Shown here: piece after piece, positions 42,789 through 54,865 of the stretch
Numbering within the stretch: position 1 is the stretch's first letter
Layout of the letters: each line of letters begins with the position of its first letter
NCBI GenBank assembly: GCA_036677065.1
Contig: JAKFBS010000008.1
Location: 96,001 to 160,000 of the forward strand
DNA: 64,000 nucleotides
Source: Bdellovibrio sp.
GTDB taxonomy: Bacteria; Bdellovibrionota; Bdellovibrionia; Bdellovibrionales; Bdellovibrionaceae
Direction of reading: 5' to 3'
Notes under the pieces: generated by a model
What the model saw: the letters and a program-made list of their open reading frames with translations, nothing else
Database searches by the model: none
What the model was told of the DNA's origin: nothing
Position numbers and translations under genes: made by a program

Positions 42789-45700
42789 GTGAAGCATCGT
42801 CTGCAGTACGTTTATTCTATCCTGCTTTTGGTAGGCCTAATTGTATATTCGGCCTCGGCGTATGCCGTTAATGGTCGCACAACTTATCAAGCTAAAATCT
42901 ACAAACCCGACGGCCAGCCTTTAGAGGCGGTCAGTGTTAATTTTCGTTTTACTGTTTTAGATCCATCATCATCATGCGTACTTTTTATTGAAGACTACGC
43001 AGCCGTTAACATGATCGGCAGTGGTGGATTAACTTCGTTTAGCTTAGGTATGGGAACAAGAACATACCCAGCAAGTGGGCCGACAACATTTGCCACAGTC
43101 TTTGATAACTCAGTCCCGTCATTTGTTTGTCAAACGCCAGGCGTGTACAATCCGGTGCCAACAGATAATAGAAAAGTCGTGATGCAATTTAATGAAGGCT
43201 CGGGTTGGCAAACATTGCCGGCAATGCCGATCAATTCGGTGCCGTATGCGATGTATTCTGCGAAAGCACAAAATTCAACATTACTAAATGGTAAAGCTGA
43301 TTCTGAATTTGTTGAAGTTTCAACATTAGCTGCATTAAATTGCCAGGTAAATGAAGCGATTCATTTTAATGGCGCAACTTTTAGTTGTATCGCGGTCGGC
43401 GTTGCCAGTAGCGGAATTTCAAGCGTCACAACCAGCGGCACAGTTTTATCAACAGGTGGTACAGCCAGCGCGCCAGTGATCTCAATCACAGCCGCCACAA
43501 TGTCGAGTGATGGTTATTTAACGTCGTTAGATTACGCTGAATTTAAAGCAAAACTTTCTGCCAGTAGTACCCAGATTATAAGTACCTTAGGTTATGCGCC
43601 AGTGAGTGGATCTGCGGTAAATACGCAAATTCAAGCTTCAAACTTGGCCGGTGATGTCAGCGGAACAATTGCTGCAAACTTTGTTCAAAGTGTTGGTGGT
43701 AAAACTTCAGCGCAAGTGGCAACAAGTGTCGATGATACGCTAGCTGCAACGTCGTCTTCGACGGCTGATACTATTGTAAAGCGTAATTCTTCAGGCAATT
43801 TTACCGCCAATGATATTTACGCCAATGCTGCAAAATTAAATTACGTCGATATTTATAGACCAAGCACAAGTTTTAATATTCGCTTACAAGCGCCAACCAG
43901 TTTAGCTGCAAATTACACTTTAAATTTACCAACCAGCAGCGGGACCGTGGGCCAAGTGTTATCAACAGATGGTTCAGGAAATTTATCTTGGATCAGTGCT
44001 GCAACCGGTAGCGTAACAAGTGTCAGTGCGACAGCACCGTTGGTTTCAACGGGTGGATCAACGCCGACTATTTCAATCACGCAATCGACGTCTTCAACGA
44101 ATGGTTATTTGTCGTCGGCAGATTGGAATACTTTTAATAATAAACAACAAGCTACACAAGCTGCCATTATTGCAACACTTGGGTACACTCCGGCGAATGC
44201 AACAAGTGCAACGCAATGGACGACTAACGGTGCAGATATTTCTTACAGCACTGGCAATGTCGGTGTTGGCACATCGACTCCGACAGAGCGATTAACAGTT
44301 GGTGCGGGAAAGCTTGCGATTATTAACACAGCCGCTTGGGATCATTTATCTTTTTATCATGCGGGCGCAAATGCTTACTATGATGTCGGTGGTGCCGAAA
44401 ACGGATTAATTATTCGAGTTGATGGTTCTGGTGGCGCAGGATACCCAGCAGTTTCATACACCGAAGTTATGCGTTTAATGCCAAGTGGTAACGTCGGGAT
44501 TGGTACGGCGACTCCTGCATTTTTACTTGATGTTTCTGGAAGCGCCCGCACGGGTAGCGTAAGTAATGGTTCAGTCGTTATGGGAAATGACAACAATGCC
44601 TTTATCGAAATGCGTGAAAATGACAGTGCCGGAACTCCTTATATAGACTTTGTAAATGATCCATCAACTGATTTTGATTTTAGATTAATTTTAAATAGTG
44701 ATGATAGTTTTAGTCTGATGGGTGGTTCTGTCGGCATCGGCACACAAGCGCCATCAGCGTTATTAAATTTAGCCGCGGGCTCAGCCAGTAATGCTCCACT
44801 TAAATTTACTTCAGGAACTTTATTATCGGCGCCGCAATCTGGCACGATGGAGTACGACGGTAATTATTTTTATTTAACTGACAGCGCAAACATTCGCCGA
44901 ACGATTGCTACAGGTTCTGTTGCAGGATCAATTGATAATGCATCTAATATTAATTCGTCAGGTAACATTACGCTGTCGCCAACAGGCTCAGTGATAGTTT
45001 CAAGCACAACGGCTTCAACAGATTCTAGCACCGGTGCTTTGATTGTAAAAGGTGGCTTAGGTGTTGCGGGTGATGCTAACTTCGGAAGTGACGTCAATGT
45101 TGCCGGGCGTGTGGGTATCGGAACATCTGCACCGCAAGCAGCACTTGATGTTTCAGGTGCTATTCGTATTGGTAACAATAACTCGGTTCAGGGTTCAGAT
45201 TTAATTTATGCACGTTACGGAGCGACTTCAGAAACTACAGCCGTGGTCGGAACAAGATATTCTTCAGGTGGATTATTTTTAGGTTACGGCATCAAAGCCG
45301 GGCCTGGGCCTACAGCAGCTGATTATTATCAATCTTCATACGCGGCCAACCTCGGGCGTTCGGTTGTACAACTTGGTCAAGATATCGATTTTTTAACAGC
45401 GTCAAATCAAGCGGCAGCCATTGGTAGTTCTGTCGCAATGACTTCAAGATTTTTTATTTCAAATGCGGGTAATGTAGGTGTGGCAACATCTGCTCCGCGC
45501 CAATTAATTGATGTCGCGCCCGGAAGTGGAAATTCAGTTGTTCGCGCAACAACAGTTGATTCATCAGCCGCGATTCAATTGTATAAAAAAACCGGCGCAG
45601 CTTACAAAGGCCATGCCCTGACCACTCAGGGTAATGATTTATATTTTAATTATGATGCCGTCGAAAATTCTGGCGCAATTCTAATGACTTTATCTGCAAG

Positions 45701-47330
45701 CGGAAGTTTAGGCATCGGCTCAACACCAGGTGAAAAATTAGATGTCTTAGGTAATATGCGTATCGGGGCAACTGATTCAAACTACATTGCCTTTCGCGGA
45801 ACCACTGGCGATGGTGCAGGATCTTACAATCATACTTATATTGGTGAAAGACTGTATAGCGGGGTTGAAGCTTCAGAATTATTATTATTTAAAGGTAATG
45901 ATTCAGACAATGCTTCTGGTCCTGACCGAATCAGAATGGCCGCAGGTAATATCGTGTTTGACACTTACGCTTCACCTGATGCGCCAAGCGGAACTTTTGA
46001 AGCCGTGGCCTCGTCGCCGATGATTACAACAAAAATGATTATTAAAGGTAACGGCGATGTGGGCATTGGAACTTCAGCACCTGTAACTCGATTAGATATT
46101 CGTGGCCCTAATGGTAGCCCATCGTCTTATGCGAGTGGCACTTTAGCTATTAACGGTGGAGGAGTTGCGGCTTTGCTGTTTGGTACAGACGATACAACAG
46201 CAAGTGCTGAGTATGCATGGATTCAGTCGCACGGAACACGGCCGTTACATATTAATAAAGTTGGAAACAGCACGGTGTTAAATGCAAATGGTGGCTACGT
46301 CGGTATTGGTGTGCCATCGCCATCAGAAAAACTTGATGTTGCTGGAAATATTAAAGTGCGTGGGCCGGCGTGGGCTGTCAGCGGAGATAAAGCGATAGTT
46401 CAGTTAGGTAATTCGGGACTTGATTATATCGAAGCCGAACTGAATGGCCCTTTAAAAATGCGATCAGCACAGCCGATTACTTTTGGTCATGACTTAGCTG
46501 GCGGTGAACAAGTTCGTATTACGAATCTTGGTTATGTCGGGATTGGTACTTCTGCGCCAACAACAAAATTAGAAGTTGTCGGTGGTAATATTAATGTGCC
46601 AACAGGCAGAGTTAGTTTTAATGCGGGTACAACAGCAGGTAGCTCAGGTGTTGCAAGCTCTGATACCGGATCTATTTTTGGTGAACATGATCTTGCTTCT
46701 GAAACAAGTCGTTTAGTTTTAGAAATTTATGACAACGTTAATGATCAAATCATAATGCGTACAAATGCTTTATCGGGTGGAGCAAATGTAGATATGGTTA
46801 AAGTGCAATACAATCAAGTATCACTTGCGCCAACGACCGGTAATGTCGGTGTGGGCGTAGAAACGCCAACTTCAAAATTACAGGTTAATGGTGGTATCAA
46901 GCAGCCAAATCACGGGCAAATATGGTTTTCGTGGGATGGCGTAACACGAATTGCTTCAATGCCGACATTCTTAACTGATGCTTACATGAATACACATCAA
47001 GACGAAGTTTTCACATGGCGTGCTCCTGCGCCGAGTTTGAAAGATACTGTAGGTTGTGGTGCTGGGCCTTCAGCAGGGTACATGTTTTCGAATGCTGGAG
47101 ACTCAACCTGGGGCGGAACTTATCGCTTAGTTATCGGTAAAGCCGGCGCAACAAACATCGTGGATATTCAGTATGCTGGTTGGGGTGCGCAACTTCTGGA
47201 TGCCAGTTTTGGAACTGTAACTGGTATATCAAACGGATCTGTTAACGCGACAATGACATTTTCTGGTGGTGTTTGGACGGTTGAACACATGCAAGGTCAG
47301 GTCGAGACAACCCCATTTTCTTGTCATTAA
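42789..47330 (+). CDS. MAT-like fibre adhesin (1513 aa), no S74 chaperone
   Basis: Signal peptide ending AYA; NGRTTYQAKI-KPDG N-terminal domain; SVPYA motif; many GNVGIGT repeats; modules shared with the other fibres. Confidence 0.9.
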   Translation: MKHRLQYVYSILLLVGLIVYSASAYAVNGRTTYQAKIYKPDGQPLEAVSVNFRFTVLDPSSSCVLFIEDYAAVNMIGSGGLTSFSLGMGTRTYPASGPTTFATVFDNSVPSFVCQTPGVYNPVPTDNRKVVMQFNEGSGWQTLPAMPINSVPYAMYSAKAQNSTLLNGKADSEFVEVSTLAALNCQVNEAIHFNGATFSCIAVGVASSGISSVTTSGTVLSTGGTASAPVISITAATMSSDGYLTSLDYAEFKAKLSASSTQIISTLGYAPVSGSAVNTQIQASNLAGDVSGTIAANFVQSVGGKTSAQVATSVDDTLAATSSSTADTIVKRNSSGNFTANDIYANAAKLNYVDIYRPSTSFNIRLQAPTSLAANYTLNLPTSSGTVGQVLSTDGSGNLSWISAATGSVTSVSATAPLVSTGGSTPTISITQSTSSTNGYLSSADWNTFNNKQQATQAAIIATLGYTPANATSATQWTTNGADISYSTGNVGVGTSTPTERLTVGAGKLAIINTAAWDHLSFYHAGANAYYDVGGAENGLIIRVDGSGGAGYPAVSYTEVMRLMPSGNVGIGTATPAFLLDVSGSARTGSVSNGSVVMGNDNNAFIEMRENDSAGTPYIDFVNDPSTDFDFRLILNSDDSFSLMGGSVGIGTQAPSALLNLAAGSASNAPLKFTSGTLLSAPQSGTMEYDGNYFYLTDSANIRRTIATGSVAGSIDNASNINSSGNITLSPTGSVIVSSTTASTDSSTGALIVKGGLGVAGDANFGSDVNVAGRVGIGTSAPQAALDVSGAIRIGNNNSVQGSDLIYARYGATSETTAVVGTRYSSGGLFLGYGIKAGPGPTAADYYQSSYAANLGRSVVQLGQDIDFLTASNQAAAIGSSVAMTSRFFISNAGNVGVATSAPRQLIDVAPGSGNSVVRATTVDSSAAIQLYKKTGAAYKGHALTTQGNDLYFNYDAVENSGAILMTLSASGSLGIGSTPGEKLDVLGNMRIGATDSNYIAFRGTTGDGAGSYNHTYIGERLYSGVEASELLLFKGNDSDNASGPDRIRMAAGNIVFDTYASPDAPSGTFEAVASSPMITTKMIIKGNGDVGIGTSAPVTRLDIRGPNGSPSSYASGTLAINGGGVAALLFGTDDTTASAEYAWIQSHGTRPLHINKVGNSTVLNANGGYVGIGVPSPSEKLDVAGNIKVRGPAWAVSGDKAIVQLGNSGLDYIEAELNGPLKMRSAQPITFGHDLAGGEQVRITNLGYVGIGTSAPTTKLEVVGGNINVPTGRVSFNAGTTAGSSGVASSDTGSIFGEHDLASETSRLVLEIYDNVNDQIIMRTNALSGGANVDMVKVQYNQVSLAPTTGNVGVGVETPTSKLQVNGGIKQPNHGQIWFSWDGVTRIASMPTFLTDAYMNTHQDEVFTWRAPAPSLKDTVGCGAGPSAGYMFSNAGDSTWGGTYRLVIGKAGATNIVDIQYAGWGAQLLDASFGTVTGISNGSVNATMTFSGGVWTVEHMQGQVETTPFSCH

Positions 47331-48376: not shown

Positions 48377-48408
48377 AAAAGAATGCAGCCTAAGCTGCAT
48401 TCTTTTTT
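48377..48408. terminator. Bidirectional intrinsic terminator
   Basis: AAAAGAATGCAGC-CTAA-GCTGCATTCTTTTTT, overlapping the permease stop codon. Confidence 0.75.
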
Positions 48409-49205
48409 AAAATCATGACGGGTATACATAAAATCGGTAAGCTCGTAAGAATTACGACCAGAACTGCGCCAACCGGCAGATCCAGTTTATAACTGACGAT
48501 CATTCCAATAAGACTTACAATCGCTCCTAAGCCCCAGCCAAACAGTAATCTTTTTCCAATTGTATTTGCAAAAAGTGAACTTAAGACTGAAGGCACTATT
48601 AAGAACGAAAACACTAACAGCACGCCGGCAATCGAAGTAGATGAAGTAATCACTACACCAAATAAAGCGTAAAAAAGAAAATCCCAAAACCAATGGCCCT
48701 GCTGATTTTCAAAAGAGTTACGCATAAATTTATCTCTGAAATACCAGTGAATAAAACCAACACCCGAATAGATCAGAAAAGTTTTTAAAACATCATCCCA
48801 GCTGACCCAAAGAATTTGCCCAACCAGGGCTTCTTTAAGATGTTCAGCACCGTGAGCTAATCGATCAATGACAAGCACGACTGCTGCAGAGGCAAAAGCA
48901 TAGGTAATGCCGATCAATGCTTCTTGCGGAATCTTTTTTTCAAATCGTCTGGCCATTGCAAATATCGCAGCAGCAATAAAGGTTGCGCCCAGTGAAATAA
49001 AATATCCAGAGGCAGAAGTGTGTTCAGGGTCCCAAATTAAAGCTAAGGTCGCCCCAAATGAGGCGACCTGTGCAAGACTTAAATCAACAAATACTACACC
49101 GCGAGCTAAAACGTGAATTCCTAAATAGCAGTGAATCACGACTAGTAAAAGACACATCACAAACGGGGCTAGTAAAAATTGAATAGCATCCATATTATTT
49201 GGCAC
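48390..49205 (-). CDS. Metal ABC transporter permease (ABC-3/ZnuB-like)
   Basis: YLGIHVLARGVVFVDLSLAQ, EALIGITY and AGVLLVFSFLIVP motifs. Confidence 0.85.
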   Translation of the reverse strand: MPNNMDAIQFLLAPFVMCLLLVVIHCYLGIHVLARGVVFVDLSLAQVASFGATLALIWDPEHTSASGYFISLGATFIAAAIFAMARRFEKKIPQEALIGITYAFASAAVVLVIDRLAHGAEHLKEALVGQILWVSWDDVLKTFLIYSGVGFIHWYFRDKFMRNSFENQQGHWFWDFLFYALFGVVITSSTSIAGVLLVFSFLIVPSVLSSLFANTIGKRLLFGWGLGAIVSLIGMIVSYKLDLPVGAVLVVILTSLPILCIPVMILKKNAA

Positions 49206-50094
49206 TCTCTAGGGCTTTAACCAGTTGCTCAGTCACATCTTCAAGTTTGTTTAAACCAGGTTGTGCTTCAACTGAAATACCTACCGATATCACTTTAGCT
49301 TTGGGCACATCTTTAATAATACGTTCAGCAATTTTGGTGTCAAAAAAACTATCTACCAAAATTAATTTGATGTTTTGTTTTTTCATCGTGTTAATCACTG
49401 AAAGCACATGCTGCGCTGAAGGCGGAACACCGGGTTTAGCTTCTAAATAAATGGGTGCTTTTAACCCGAATCGATCCAAGAAATAATTAAGTGACGGGTG
49501 ATAAGTCACCAGTTCTTTAATTTCAGTTTTTTGAATACGCATAGTCCAGTCAGCCATTTTTTTAGAAACAGATTCTTGAAACAGCTTAGCATTAGCTGCA
49601 TAAATTAGTTTATTGGCGCTATCTAATTCAGAAAGTTTTTCTGCGATTTTTACTGCCAGCTCGCTTAAACGAACCGGATCAAGCATAAAGTGCGGATTAC
49701 CTTCAGGATGAACATCACCCATCGCTCGTGTTACATTCACAGTGGGCTTATCAAGAGGAGTAATCAAAGAACCTAGTTCCATATACCCTGACGAAGCCGC
49801 TGAGATTTTTGGATTACGCGCACCTTTTAGTAAAGTCGGAAGCCAGCCAATTTCTAGTGATAAACCATTTGATACGATTAAATCTGCATCACGCATTTTT
49901 ACCATATACGAAGGTTTAGCTTCGATATAGTGGGGGTCTTGCGACCCCTTGGCGATTTGTGAAAGATTCACGGTATCACCAGCCACCACTTTAACAAGGG
50001 CTGCGATATCTGCAGTTGTTGCCACGACATTTAATTTAGCCTGTGCTATCGATGTCATTGCAATCATGAAAAAACATATTAAATAAATTTTCAT
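49195..50094 (-). CDS. Metal ABC transporter substrate-binding protein (ZnuA/TroA-like)
   Basis: QDPHYIEAKPS, GDVHPEGNPHFMLDP and VTYH motifs; signal peptide. Confidence 0.9.
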   Translation of the reverse strand: MKIYLICFFMIAMTSIAQAKLNVVATTADIAALVKVVAGDTVNLSQIAKGSQDPHYIEAKPSYMVKMRDADLIVSNGLSLEIGWLPTLLKGARNPKISAASSGYMELGSLITPLDKPTVNVTRAMGDVHPEGNPHFMLDPVRLSELAVKIAEKLSELDSANKLIYAANAKLFQESVSKKMADWTMRIQKTEIKELVTYHPSLNYFLDRFGLKAPIYLEAKPGVPPSAQHVLSVINTMKKQNIKLILVDSFFDTKIAERIIKDVPKAKVISVGISVEAQPGLNKLEDVTEQLVKALESAK

Positions 50095-50104
50095 AAGCTA
50101 ACCT

Positions 50105-51193
50105 TTAGTAGGCATGGGCGGGATGAGCACCGATGCTGTAATTAAATTGCACTAGCACACGTTTTTCATCGTCGGTAGCACCATCTTTTAATTGATCATA
50201 CTGTAGTCTGATTCCAGAAAACTCTGAAGGAATATATCCAATTAACAAAGATTGTTTTTTTTGTTTTTCAGGTAACGGTTCAGTTAAAGAGGGATCTTGT
50301 TCTTTAAATGTTAGCTCTTCACCGCGTACTTGTAACCACCAGCGGCGTGCAAATTGATATTGAATCCAAGTAGCAAAGCCTTCGGCTTTTTCTGTAAAAG
50401 CGGTTCTGTTTTGCTTACGTTGCAGAAGTTCTGTTGACCAGCTTGCCGAGCGCGATTCATTAGCGCGCCATTTGAAAGTTAAGTCAGCGCCTGCAAGATT
50501 TGTTTTTTCTTCATCGATGTTTTTACCATTTGCTCCTGAAAGTCCAAGTTCAAAAGTTAAATCAGCATTGATATCCCACAGGTTTTTAAGATGCGCTAAG
50601 GCTACAGTGCTGTTAGCAGCTGATGAGTTAAAATAATCTAACCCTTCAGAGCGGCCAGAAATACCTTGTAGTGTTAACTCAGAAAACCAAGAAGTCGGAA
50701 ACAACACAGAAGCTGATAAGCCCACATCATTTAAGCCTTCGTCACCCAGTAAATATTGATTAGCTAAAGGCGCATCAATAAAAGGAAAGGCATGTGTGTG
50801 AAGTGCATTGTGTTTTCCGAAAGCAGTTTTGAATTTACCGATTTTTAGAGTCACAAAAGGTAAATCTAAACTTTCAGCGAAGGCCTCTTCGGGTTCAAAC
50901 ACAAATTCTCTTTCGGGCGGTACAACACTATCGTCATACTCTTGGTGTAAGGCAAAAGTACTGGTAAAACGCCAGTAAGGATCTACATCGGCAGAAAACT
51001 GCAGCTCAGCTTCTTGCACAGCTAGTCCATTCGGATTTTCAACATTGGCATCATTGCCGCGGTTTGAATTTTGATAAAGAAATAAAGTGTTGATCCCAAT
51101 GTCTGGGTTAAAAGAATTGCCGCGCGATTTTATGGTTTGGGCAAATACTTGAGTCGAAAATAATATAATAAAAAAATAACTGAACAGTTTCAT
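50105..51193 (-). CDS. Outer-membrane beta-barrel protein associated with metal uptake
   Basis: Signal peptide; FNPDIG, EAELQFSADVDPY, HNALHTHAFPFIDAP and terminal IGAHPAHAY; alternating beta-strand pattern. Confidence 0.8.
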   Translation of the reverse strand: MKLFSYFFIILFSTQVFAQTIKSRGNSFNPDIGINTLFLYQNSNRGNDANVENPNGLAVQEAELQFSADVDPYWRFTSTFALHQEYDDSVVPPEREFVFEPEEAFAESLDLPFVTLKIGKFKTAFGKHNALHTHAFPFIDAPLANQYLLGDEGLNDVGLSASVLFPTSWFSELTLQGISGRSEGLDYFNSSAANSTVALAHLKNLWDINADLTFELGLSGANGKNIDEEKTNLAGADLTFKWRANESRSASWSTELLQRKQNRTAFTEKAEGFATWIQYQFARRWWLQVRGEELTFKEQDPSLTEPLPEKQKKQSLLIGYIPSEFSGIRLQYDQLKDGATDDEKRVLVQFNYSIGAHPAHAY

Positions 51194-51247
51194 AAAAACT
51201 CCGTTGTATAAAATTAATAGGTCAAAATTTAAATAGATTGTTTAAAC

Positions 51248-51598
51248 TTAGACTACGGGCGGAGCACGGGCTTGATGATAGTTGCTGTCACTGTAAGAAA
51301 TCCAGTAGGGGATTAGGGTAGGCCTGATGTTTTGAATGGCTAAAACGTGAACTTGGGGGCTTGAGTCTAAAACTACAAACGGCTGTGGGTGCTGATTAGC
51401 AATAAGTTGTAAAAACTTACAGTGTTTGTGTAGTTCTTGAAGTGAAGCCGTTGCCGAGCCATTGACCGCGTGTAAAGCTTCAATTTCAGGTTCGCTCTCA
51501 TTCGAAAGTAAATGCGTTAATTCATGAAGTTGCTGCATGAAAAACTGCGCAACGATAAAGCTAAAGATAAGAAAAAATCTGACAGCGTGAATTCTCAT
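51248..51598 (-). CDS. DUF2946-like leader protein with C-terminal RAPP motif (putative ribosome-arrest metal sensor)
   Basis: N-terminal hydrophobic segment, LHELTH and HKHC, ends QARAPPVV; first ORF of the metal-uptake operon. Confidence 0.75.
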   Translation of the reverse strand: MRIHAVRFFLIFSFIVAQFFMQQLHELTHLLSNESEPEIEALHAVNGSATASLQELHKHCKFLQLIANQHPQPFVVLDSSPQVHVLAIQNIRPTLIPYWISYSDSNYHQARAPPVV

Positions 51599-51701: not shown

Positions 51702-52295
51702 ATGGAAAAACCAATAGATTTTACTCAAATCAAAGAATTCACCGATCATGTATTTCAAAATCTGGATTTGCGTCAGCAAGTTATCGAAGGCTGTAGTTTT
51801 GATGCCTGCACCTTTAATCAAAGTTCTTTTAGTGGCGCCACGCTAAAAAACTGCCGCTTCGTCGATTGTATCTTTGAACATTGTGATCTAAGTAATACGC
51901 AATTAACCAGTTCGACTTTACGCTCGGTTAAATTTCAAAATTCAAAATTAGTCGGCATTAATTGGACAGCAGCTTCTGAAGTCATGCATTTAGCTTGGTA
52001 TGAATGTATTTTAAATTACGGAAACTTTTCTGGCCTAGATTTGCGCAAATGTGTTTTATTTCAGTGCATGGCTATTGAAGCTGACTTTATTCAAACTAAT
52101 TTCAGCGAAGCCAATTTGGGCGCAACCGATTTCGCCTCGGCAAGATTTGCTTCAACTAATTTAATAAAAGCTGATTTTCGCCAAGCCAGAAATTATTCGA
52201 TTCGCCCCGACAGCAATAAAATTAAAAATGCGAAATTTTCACTGCCAGAAGCTACACTTTTACTTTACGGCTTAGATATTATTTTAGAGCAGTAA
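51702..52295 (+). CDS. Pentapeptide repeat protein
   Basis: Regular 5-residue periodicity (CSFDA, CTFNQ, SSFSG, ATLKN, CRFVD...). Confidence 0.9.
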   Translation: MEKPIDFTQIKEFTDHVFQNLDLRQQVIEGCSFDACTFNQSSFSGATLKNCRFVDCIFEHCDLSNTQLTSSTLRSVKFQNSKLVGINWTAASEVMHLAWYECILNYGNFSGLDLRKCVLFQCMAIEADFIQTNFSEANLGATDFASARFASTNLIKADFRQARNYSIRPDSNKIKNAKFSLPEATLLLYGLDIILEQ

Positions 52296-52450: not shown

Positions 52451-54865
52451 ATGTGGAACGTGAACGCTGCAAAATTCTTAATTCTATTAAGCATTTATTT
52501 GTTTGCTCTTCCTGTTTTTGCAATGAACGGACGAACGACTTATCAAGCGAAAATTTCAAAGCCTGATGGTTACCCACTGGAATCTGCCAGCGTAAATTTC
52601 AGATTCACCGTTTTAGATACCGTCGGCAGTTGTATTCTTTATGTCGAAGACTATGCGGCGATCAACATGCAAGATACCGGCGGTTTAGTATCGTTTGCAT
52701 TAGGTAATGGATCGCGTGCGTTTCCAACCAGTGGAACTTCGCAAACATTTCAAAATATTTTTGACAACTCAGTAGCTTCTTTTCCCTGCCAAAATTTAGG
52801 AATTTATAATCCGGGCCCTAATGATACGCGCCGTGTGGTGATGCAATTTAACGAAGGTGTCGGTTGGCAAACGCTTCCAGCGATGACGATCAATTCTGTT
52901 CCGTATTCGATGTTTGCAAATACGGCGAATATAGCAAAAACATTAAATGGTAAAGCTGATACAGATTTTGTTGAATACACAGCTCTTACAGGCTTGAACT
53001 GTCAAAGTAACGAAGCCATTAAATTTAATGGTGTAAGTTTTAGTTGTATTCCGGTATCAGGAATTTCTGTCAGCGGTTCAGTTTTAGCTATTGGCGGAAC
53101 AGCTTCAGCACCAGTTATTTCTATGAGTGCAGTTTCAATGTCGAGTGATGGTTATTTAACATCATCAGATTATGCCGAATTTAAAGCTCAAGTCAGTAAT
53201 GTGAGTGCAACAGCACCGTTAGCCTCGACGGGTGGATCAACACCAACAATTTCAATCACTCAAGCGACATCTGCGTCGAATGGTTATTTATCTGCAGCAG
53301 ATTTCGTAACATTTAATAGTAAACAAAATGCCTTAGGTTATATTCCGTTAGATAGCGCCGTCTCTGGAACTTTTGCCGTCAAAGCTAATAACTTATCTGA
53401 TTTAACAAATGTCGCAACCGCCAGAACTAATTTAGGACTTGGAACTTTTGCGGTAGCAAACAGTATTGATTTAGGTTCAGCCAGTGCAACCGGAATCATT
53501 AATGAAGCCCGCTTCGCTAATCGCAGTGGGGTAACATCAGGAACGCAATACACAAAAGTCACGGTCGATGGAAAAGGTTTTGTAACTAACGGAAGCCAAA
53601 TTTCATCAGGTGATGTGACCACGGCTTTAGGTTATACACCGGCCAGCGCCTCAGCCAGTACACAGTGGAACACCAGTGGCACAACTATTAATTATACAAA
53701 TGGTTTTGTCGGTCTTGGAACCGCGGCGCCACAAGCCGCCTTAGATATTTTTAGTGGTTCATTAAGATTTTCAAATCTTTTAAGTGGCCAAGGAATTTCT
53801 GGATACTCTGGTGGTGGCGTGAATGTCATGAATCTAATCAGAGAAGATGCTATTAGTACGGGTGGATTAACTATGACTGCCTACGGCGGCATCGGTTTTG
53901 CGACTGGTGAAACTGCACCGACAACAAATTATGATTTTTTCATTAATAATACAGGTCGGGTGGGTATCGGAACAAATACGCCAACTGCGCAACTTGAAGT
54001 TAAAAACACATCGGCTACGATTAAAATCACATCGAGTGATGGAGTTAGCCCAAGTTATTTAAGAACAAATTTAAACGGGGTTTTTAATAGTTTTTTTGGA
54101 ACTGAAGGCCTTGCCGGCACGCTGTTTACCAATAGTTTAACTTTTGCTACGGTTCTTGGTTCACAATCAAATGTGCCTGTGCAAATCGCCACAAATGGGT
54201 CTGTTAAAACATCCATACTTGCTAATGGTAATATGGGTGTAGGCACGATTAGCCCCTCTGAAAAATTAGTCGTTGGTGATGATCTTGGCGATCTGACTGC
54301 TGGAAATGGTATTGTCGTTGGTGATGCTACAGGCGGTGGTTCTGTTTTTGTCGGAAAAGATGCTAGTAATTGGGGGCGAATTTCTTTTCAAAATGACAAG
54401 TTTGCAATTCAGCACAATGATGCCGGAACAACCAGTTCTATTTACATGGATGCGGGTAATGTCGGCATCGGAACAACAGCTCCGGCTGCAAAACTGGATG
54501 TTCAAGGTCAGGTTAAAACTTCAATGGGTACTCCGTTAGTAAATCCGGCCAGCGAAGCCGTTGATTTTGCTTCTGGTAATACTCAGTATGTTACCTTTAG
54601 TACGTGTCCTGGTAATGTGTTAACAGTGAATTTATTTTCGATACACGAAGGCAGTAGTTATTCGATTGTTATCGTTGCGCCGAATGGCTGTCTGGTTGAT
54701 TTTACCGGTATCTCGCATGCGATTGGTGGTTCTGGTGGAACCGCAGTGACAGCTTTTAAATATCCGGCAGGTCAAAAGTTTTCATCAACGGGTAACCCGA
54801 TGGTGTATTCTTTCTTGCGCGCAAACAATTTTGTATTCGTGGCACAAGTCGTAGATTTTCAATGA
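52451..54865 (+). CDS. MAT-like fibre adhesin (804 aa)
   Basis: N-terminal domain paralogous to 42789 (NGRTTYQAKISKPDG, QFNEG-GWQTLPAM-INSVPY); NNLSDL-ARTNLGL, VTVDGKG and GNVGIGT modules. Confidence 0.9.
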   Translation: MWNVNAAKFLILLSIYLFALPVFAMNGRTTYQAKISKPDGYPLESASVNFRFTVLDTVGSCILYVEDYAAINMQDTGGLVSFALGNGSRAFPTSGTSQTFQNIFDNSVASFPCQNLGIYNPGPNDTRRVVMQFNEGVGWQTLPAMTINSVPYSMFANTANIAKTLNGKADTDFVEYTALTGLNCQSNEAIKFNGVSFSCIPVSGISVSGSVLAIGGTASAPVISMSAVSMSSDGYLTSSDYAEFKAQVSNVSATAPLASTGGSTPTISITQATSASNGYLSAADFVTFNSKQNALGYIPLDSAVSGTFAVKANNLSDLTNVATARTNLGLGTFAVANSIDLGSASATGIINEARFANRSGVTSGTQYTKVTVDGKGFVTNGSQISSGDVTTALGYTPASASASTQWNTSGTTINYTNGFVGLGTAAPQAALDIFSGSLRFSNLLSGQGISGYSGGGVNVMNLIREDAISTGGLTMTAYGGIGFATGETAPTTNYDFFINNTGRVGIGTNTPTAQLEVKNTSATIKITSSDGVSPSYLRTNLNGVFNSFFGTEGLAGTLFTNSLTFATVLGSQSNVPVQIATNGSVKTSILANGNMGVGTISPSEKLVVGDDLGDLTAGNGIVVGDATGGGSVFVGKDASNWGRISFQNDKFAIQHNDAGTTSSIYMDAGNVGIGTTAPAAKLDVQGQVKTSMGTPLVNPASEAVDFASGNTQYVTFSTCPGNVLTVNLFSIHEGSSYSIVIVAPNGCLVDFTGISHAIGGSGGTAVTAFKYPAGQKFSSTGNPMVYSFLRANNFVFVAQVVDFQ

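Follow-up and report, generated by a model that had tools for sequence, protein, structure and literature searches.

What does a short open reading frame (ORF) ending in RAPP do at the head of an operon for metal uptake and, if it senses a metal, which one? The question is raised by a locus in a 64,000 nucleotide (nt) stretch of a Bdellovibrio sp. contig, referred to here as the window. In Bordetella pertussis, CruR (Bp2923) senses copper through a CxxC motif and mediates a Rho-dependent shut-off (PMC9426467). The RAPP motif of CruR arrests translation in vitro, and upstream ORFs with RAPP are enriched before genes for TonB-dependent receptors and before other metal-related genes (PMC12992588). 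Arrest peptides of this type (ApdA, ApdP, CruR) are characterised by a stall with residues three and four of the motif at the P and A sites and by loss of arrest when RAPP becomes AAPP. In its Discussion of 2022 the CruR paper pointed to the lack of any known riboswitch for copper or zinc, a gap for which it suggested peptide-based sensors (PMC9426467); zinc terms gave no match in three of its supplementary files. Our literature search, with subscription papers mostly outside its scope, met only copper cases and no description of a zinc-sensing arrest peptide. Nine rows in the source data of PMC12992588 appear to hold the arrangement of leader and cassette described here, and the main text of that paper does not contain the word zinc; the arrangement thus appears to be present in public data but not to be discussed as zinc sensing. 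An earlier note on this DNA had read the locus as a CruR-like RAPP leader heading a metal-uptake operon, and layout, spacing and synteny agree with that reading.

The leader ORF and the genes that follow it

The elements that had been read from the letters of this locus, an ORF with a hydrophobic N-terminus, the clusters LHELTH and HKHC and a terminal RAPP, are all present in the sequence (Table 1). The proposed order, from the leader across a spacer to a barrel, a ZnuA-type protein and a permease, is borne out by the coordinates and by Pfam.

Table 1 Features of the leader and of the downstream operon, in positions of the window.
Feature	Position	Strand	Remarks
Leader ORF, 116 aa	51248..51598	minus	CruR/DUF2946-like candidate arrest peptide
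Hydrophobic N-terminal segment, ~residues 6-21	51536..51583	minus	Predicted signal anchor or signal peptide
H25-x3-H29 (LHELTH)	51512..51526	minus	H25 invariant in 66 leaders; putative metal ligands
H57-K-H59-C60 (HKHC)	51419..51430	minus	C60 is invariant; the arrest Arg is 51 residues on
RAPP arrest motif, R111-A-P-P114	51257..51268	minus	Codons CGT GCT CCG CCC; 2 residues before the stop
54-nt spacer	51194..51247	minus	Holds the barrel Shine-Dalgarno sequence ACGGAG at 51204-51199
Outer-membrane barrel, 362 aa	50105..51193	minus	Model of 16 strands without a plug; fold like that of OprP/OprO
ZnuA-type solute-binding protein	49195..50094	minus	PF01297, E 4e-49; three conserved His
ABC-3 (ZnuB-type) permease	48390..49205	minus	PF00950, E 7e-22

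The leader starts with ATG, is without a clear Shine-Dalgarno sequence of its own and ends in QARAPPVV followed by the stop codon (51250-51248). Its N-terminal segment has a 13-residue mean hydropathy of 2.41, and such a segment is found in 66/66 of the distinct leaders described below (1.9-3.3). The AlphaFold model has a confident helix at residues 2-32, on which one turn separates H25 from H29, then a short helix (56-68) and a long tail without structure; its tertiary fold is not confident (pTM 0.34). No paralogous leader better than E 0.084 was found in this genome. In two of the collected loci (L082 and L083) a TTGACA-17 nt-TAAAGT sequence lies 5' of the leader and ends, by eye, 6 nt before the likely GTG start, a spacing that hints at a leaderless mRNA.

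The three genes after the leader overlap or nearly touch on one strand. Against PF07642 the barrel protein scores 20.4 bits, below the cut-off, and its model (pLDDT 89), which is closest to the folds of OprP, OmpT, chitoporin and OprO, is not that of a 22-stranded barrel with an N-terminal plug. Its His motifs, H132/H134 in an HNxLHTH region and H357/H360 in a C-terminal GxHxxH, are invariant down to homologues of 23-27% identity, and the nearest named relatives, from Pseudobdellovibrio, are 84% identical. The three His residues of the binding protein are conserved in 54, 55 and 55 of 55 sequences. Its closest solved relatives are Synechocystis ZnuA and the streptococcal Lmb/AdcA-type proteins, and its NCBIfam matches, with Mn/Fe proteins among them, are all below the cut-offs. 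It is the sole PF01297 gene found in the genome, as the permease is the sole PF00950 gene found.

The target of the leader had been described as a barrel plus ABC components. The barrel, the binding protein and the permease stand, but no ATPase adjoins the cassette (0/56 loci, by a Walker A pattern that can miss variants, on the same strand over at least 3 kb downstream). The best match to the ZnuC profile in this genome reaches 101 bits against a cut-off of 306, and an ATPase may be borrowed from elsewhere. In the metagenome set described below, an ATPase lies within 3 kb at 1/80 loci, upstream. A distant and mostly leaderless barrel subfamily of Bdellovibrionota (L108-L127) has an ATPase in 14/20 loci; within it, L119 carries a RAPP leader and L118 an NSPP form, and a Fur-family gene is found next to the operon in 4/20 (L111, L115, L117 and L121).

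On the other side of the leader, 103 nt away and divergent from it, is a gene for a pentapeptide-repeat protein (51702-52295, plus strand), which is far under the Qnr family cut-offs and was not seen as a conserved neighbour. A Cro/C1-type HTH protein (PF13443; 47327-48079, minus strand) is encoded 310 nt past the permease. Two large paralogous exported proteins (42789-47330 and 52451-54865, both plus strand) have N-termini that are almost the same and G[IV]GT motifs in repeated copies, and presumably resemble the phage-tail-like fibre proteins of predatory bacteria.

Conservation of the motif and of the putative ligands

We collected 97 barrel loci (17 + 80, some genomes being represented twice) and dropped five with less than 500 nt upstream. 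A leader was scored where a same-strand frame ended no more than 400 nt upstream and held [RK]xPP within its last 25 residues. By this rule a leader precedes 72 of the 92 barrels, mostly from Bdellovibrionota (64/82 once duplicates are removed), and the RAPP-type leader is thus conserved among orthologues. Sixty-six of the leaders are distinct. The same rule scores 19/2,253 control genes of this genome. RAPP occurs once in the genome, in the leader (3,322 ORFs, 1.07 million residues), and RGPP not at all among these ORFs, as against 12 AAPP and 10 KAPP. Since RAPP is unique and RGPP nil while AAPP and KAPP are not rare, and since the leader rule is seldom satisfied at control genes, the RAPP of the leader is not there by chance.

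The C-terminal motif is RAPP in 29 of the 66 leaders, RGPP in 17, RKPP in 10, RRPP in 4, KKPP and RDPP in 2 each and KAPP and KRPP in 1 each, at 1-9 residues from the stop. All four Ala codons occur at the motif (GCT 11, GCG 9, GCA 7, GCC 3), as do all four Gly codons, which argues for selection on the peptide; selection on the Ala codon for an anti-Shine-Dalgarno sequence is not supported, all four codons being in use. No [RK]xPP leader was found at 20/92 barrel loci, one of which has a degenerate NSPP leader. These 20 loci, and the 17/66 leaders with RKPP, RRPP, KKPP or KRPP, weaken the arrest reading. Bulky substitutions at the second place of the motif break arrest in both ApdA and ApdP, and RKPP is absent from the main text of the paper that reports this (PMC12992588). 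In a clade of 17 leaders with HxH (L047, L007, L008, L057, L082 and others), a single Cys precedes the motif by 46-47 residues, and EPxRKPPR/K stands where others have RAPP; the motif of this clade is possibly another stalling core.

Leaders are also found in phyla other than Bdellovibrionota, and the leader profile matches 1,076 representatives at E ≤ 0.001. A second phylum-level draw, from the group of the FCPU426 record L078, gave a leader at 19/20 loci, two of the 20 repeating earlier loci and the single miss having 248 nt upstream. Its motifs are RAPP, RGPP, RSPP, RDPP, HGPP and KAPP; RGPP, RSPP, RDPP and HGPP are reported as arrest-permissive or avoided motifs (PMC12992588). In Sulfurovum mangrovi (L129:3177-3533) a 118-aa leader with a His cluster, CxxC and a C-terminal HAPP, about 69 residues apart when counted by eye from CxxC, stands before the same three-gene cassette. 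A second barrel copy in one genome (L045) has a RAPP leader and other genes downstream, without a binding protein or permease. On a quick barrel tree, which gives no order of events, the single-Cys RAPP/RGPP leaders cluster, and so do the RKPP leaders.

Across the alignment of the 66 leaders the mean column identity is 14%; H25, C60, P113 and P114 are invariant and R111 is nearly so. The window leader and its two nearest relatives are 46-50% identical with YHQARAPPV unchanged, and their barrels 84% identical. CxxC is kept by 36/66 leaders, 43-48 residues before the Arg. The window leader has one Cys only, in C60-K-F-L and without CxxC, and belongs to a clade of 13 single-Cys RAPP/RGPP leaders whose Cys lies 51-52 residues before the Arg; a further Cys follows soon after HxxxH in 8/13 of them. 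The proposal that HxHC replaces CxxC here did not hold. C60 is aligned with the first Cys of the CxxC of relatives, and HxHC occurs in 3/13 leaders of the window clade and 0/53 others, so that with 3/66 leaders it was rejected as a conserved site. HxxxH, in contrast, directly follows the membrane segment in 13/13 window-clade leaders and 34/36 CxxC leaders. As judged from the alignment, the putative common ligand set is His-x3-His plus Cys(-x2-Cys).

Membership of the DUF2946 family, to which CruR had been assigned in that note, was not borne out for the window protein, which has no PF11162 match at E ≤ 1 (curated cut-off 23.7 bits); 21/66 leaders match weakly, at E ≤ 0.1 (best 4.1e-5). The cut-off is reached by 2 of 100 leader-profile matches scanned, out of 150 listed, and a DUF2946 profile search of this genome gave no match. 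With a profile built from the 36 CxxC leaders alone, in turn, the window leader scores E 1e-4 in a set of 9,294 sequences, the best unrelated match in the genome being 0.022. A language-model atlas, used as a lead only, places the leader near unnamed clusters (0.96) and near a cluster with 36% DUF2946 members (0.95). We do not file the leader under DUF2946, because both the profile match and CxxC fail for the window protein; by analogy, it would nonetheless work like CruR.

Metal specificity and a proposed switch

By tblastn, Vibrio campbellii has a homologous three-gene cassette (barrel 27%, binding protein 30% and permease 28% identical), with two exact TGTTAT-n3-A[TC]AACA boxes 18-66 nt before the start and no leader upstream. 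The V. campbellii barrel shares 85% identity with a protein of V. parahaemolyticus, and from sequence we infer that the cassette corresponds to VP_RS21420-21430 (omr-znuAII-znuBII). In V. parahaemolyticus this operon of the Zur regulon rises under zinc limitation, omr 1034-, znuAII 543- and znuBII 283-fold (PMC9817125, Table 1), and Vpa1307 as well as its His residues help cells to grow when the medium is poor in zinc (PMC3794297). Shewanella homologues of the barrel carry the label 'Zinc-regulated TonB-dependent...', under which omr is also entered in Table 1 of PMC9817125.

A metagenome set of 80 loci was gathered through a gamma-proteobacterial alignment, and 12 loci were dropped as duplicates or for having less than 600 nt upstream. 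A leader was scored at 41 of the remaining 68, and one (L205) was removed as spurious. The set thus holds 40 loci with a leader, 11 with a Zur box and no leader, and 17 with neither; one of the 40 leaders has a one-mismatch Zur box before it. Leader and Zur box, by a box pattern that is gamma-proteobacterial, are almost mutually exclusive (Fisher p = 1e-4, overstated because the loci are related). At the window operon no box of the gamma type is present, in line with the absence of a Zur/Fur-like box noted earlier, although a Zur/Fur box with a different consensus may exist there. No palindrome or operator is shared upstream of the 66 leaders (best 5/66). This genome has two Fur-family genes. 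Both rank at or near the bottom on the Zur model, and their identity to the operon-linked Fur-family proteins of relatives does not exceed 33%; one of them could be a divergent Zur. At the leaderless locus L044 a Fur-like His/Cys motif lies upstream.

The metal had been proposed to be one other than copper. This is supported as the most likely case, and the Vibrio Zur boxes together with the three-His binding protein narrow it to zinc. HxxxH with CxxC makes a His2Cys2 ligand set, which is typical of zinc.

Taken together, we hold it very likely that the ORF encodes a regulatory arrest leader, and likely that this leader senses a metal. That it is a zinc-released arrest switch for the porin, ZnuA-type protein and permease operon is probable. 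Slightly favoured is the wider view that arrest peptides with HxxxH, Cys or CxxC, and RAPP form a family which extends across phyla and senses zinc, and that the leader is a member. This family would stand in for Zur in the control of a plug-less, His-lined zinc porin and a ZnuA/ZnuB pair lacking an ATPase, with ZrgD/DUF2607 as a parallel. Motif, spacing, synteny and alternation with Zur boxes are matters of observation. From the stalling onwards, the switch that we infer would work as follows. At low zinc, the ribosome would stall at RAPP with P113 in the P site and keep the porin, ZnuA-type protein and permease genes on. In such a stall C60 would already have left the tunnel, 53 residues away from the peptidyl-transferase centre, and H25 and H29 would lie further out. 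Available zinc would then be bound by the emerged nascent chain through His25, His29, Cys60 and a fourth, variable ligand, which would be the second Cys in CxxC relatives and probably a nearby His in the window leader. Binding would fold this emerged part, pull the chain and free the stall. The operon would then be turned off either by pairing of the freed A110-R111 codons with the barrel Shine-Dalgarno sequence or by access of Rho, as in CruR. Zinc may be sensed in the cytoplasm or in the periplasm.

The barrel Shine-Dalgarno sequence is predicted to pair with codons A110-R111 (probability 0.7-0.8), and, once a stalled ribosome is placed on the leader in the model, opening it costs 4.6 instead of 7.6 kcal/mol. 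A drop of at least 1 kcal/mol was obtained for 27/66 leaders, against 7/66 for a shifted block and 19/150 control gene pairs; in the model, the effect is modest across the family and partly due to the C-rich Pro codons. The local fold of the spacer region is no better than that of shuffles (z-score -1.27). As for Rho, whose gene is present in this genome, the spacers of the 66 leaders (26-140 nt) are pyrimidine-rich (0.61 against 0.52 ± 0.07), with C>G in 52/66, and C also exceeds G at the leader 3' end in 64/66. The skew is gone at synonymous sites, where the C share is 0.564 against 0.544 in the barrel and higher in 35/66, and selection for a Rho site at the nucleotide level was therefore not found. 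A consensus scan detected no intrinsic terminator between leader and barrel, and an Rfam search gave three chance-level matches, none of them at the leader.

It is unlikely that the same arrest switch answers to copper, to Ni, Co, Mn or Fe, or to several metals alike. Copper is what both characterised relatives, CruR and CutF, sense, but the operon holds no copper genes and the window peptide has one Cys only. In some relatives Ala-x-Ala precedes the first His, so that cleavage could expose an N-terminal His, a ligand of the kind that takes copper or nickel. Binding proteins with three His ligands may be promiscuous, and the sub-cut-off NCBIfam matches of the one encoded here include Mn/Fe proteins. 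Against another metal stand the Zur boxes and the zinc induction of the leaderless homologous cassette. Against Mn in particular, the third ligand of the binding protein is His and not the Glu that Mn-type binding proteins (PsaA/MntC) have at this place.

The leader might instead be a secretion monitor of the SecM/ApdP kind, in which Sec pulling frees the stall, the synthesis of the porin is thereby adjusted to export capacity, and the His and Cys residues are no sensor. An export-type N-terminus with a C-terminal RAPP is indeed the layout of a Sec monitor, and each of the three genes downstream encodes an exported or a membrane protein. We nevertheless consider this quite improbable, as the His and Cys residues are invariant and at a fixed distance from the Arg, no sec gene lies downstream, the leader alternates with Zur boxes, and the signal region of CruR is dispensable (PMC9426467). 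More improbable still is a role of the product as an accessory of the transporter, binding metal in the periplasm or while anchored in the membrane, with RAPP incidental or only lowering its own expression. An exported His/Cys protein within a metal-uptake operon would fit this role, and an earlier proposal had DUF2946 itself taking part in the uptake of copper (10.1101/072470). The model of two short helices and an unstructured tail, the low identity of the alignment outside H, C and RxPP, the occurrence of the cassette without a leader and the absence of RAPP from the rest of the proteome speak against it. It is least to be expected that metal promotes the stall and that the operon rises with metal, for buffering or export. 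Copper does induce stalling and downstream translation in CutF (bioRxiv 10.1101/2025.02.05.636593); however, the genes here are of the importer type, and in Vibrio their homologues go up when zinc is limiting.

Relation to known systems

If the zinc-released switch is correct, the leader would carry over to zinc a type of switch that has so far been demonstrated for copper only. On the wider view of a family, it would be the first post-transcriptional zinc sensor made of a nascent peptide. The presence of the same cassette under Zur boxes or under a leader in different bacteria would allow a direct test of zinc, and the natural variants (CxxC, single Cys, RKPP) would map the ligands and the arrest core that are needed. 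The locus also draws attention to two features of transport that are uncharacterised: a porin with His motifs and, by prediction, no plug, which databases label as TonB-dependent, and a ZnuA/ZnuB pair without an adjoining ATPase.

Like CruR, the leader is the first gene of a metal-uptake operon, has an export-type N-terminus and is followed by the gene of an outer-membrane transporter. Both have a Cys about 50 residues before RAPP (51 from C60 to R111, and 49 from C90 to R139 in CruR) and RAPP 2-3 residues from the stop. The distance between CxxC and RAPP in CruR, 45 residues, tolerates changes of ±2 but not of +5 (PMC9426467). The window clade differs from CruR in having one Cys instead of CxxC and, in addition, a conserved HxxxH. 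The spacer is 54 nt long as compared with 162 nt, and the genes downstream encode a plug-less porin, a ZnuA-type protein and a permease rather than a TonB-dependent transporter and a PepSY protein. Zinc is the putative ligand, whereas CruR senses copper and is described as responding little to zinc, which counts against the zinc reading. CutF of Rhodobacter capsulatus is likewise an exported metal-sensing leader whose stalling controls a downstream ribosome-binding site; it differs in using CxxxC and PPP, in its dependence on EF-P, in stalling with copper and in driving a detoxifying oxidase (bioRxiv 10.1101/2025.02.05.636593). ApdA, ApdP and SecM have the same arrest core and, like the leader, are small exported proteins with this core close to the C-terminus (PMC12992588), but monitor Sec-dependent export, precede sec genes and are without a metal-ligand motif.

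The Vibrio omr-znuAII-znuBII operon (VP_RS21430-21420, Vpa1307) has the same gene order and presumably the same families, also without an ATPase; it differs in its control by Zur boxes and, in the V. campbellii copy, in the absence of a leader ORF. A parallel to the leader itself may be found in ZrgD (DUF2607/PF10795), which heads the list of genes in zrgABCDE, a zinc operon of Vibrionaceae under Zur, and whose function is described as unknown. PF10795 matched neither the window protein nor its 66 relatives nor the genome, in a search that matched no control genome either and thus shows little. At least 40 occurrences of the DUF2607 name are found in source file 8 (Fig. 4B) of PMC12992588. In two rows of these source data ZrgD ends in RAPP and resembles the leader in its hydrophobic N-terminus, its His cluster, a Cys 45 residues (by eye) before RAPP and its place ahead of DUF2796/ZrgA. 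It differs in serving another transporter and in being also under Zur; it is possible that DUF2607/ZrgD is a second arrest leader of a zinc operon.
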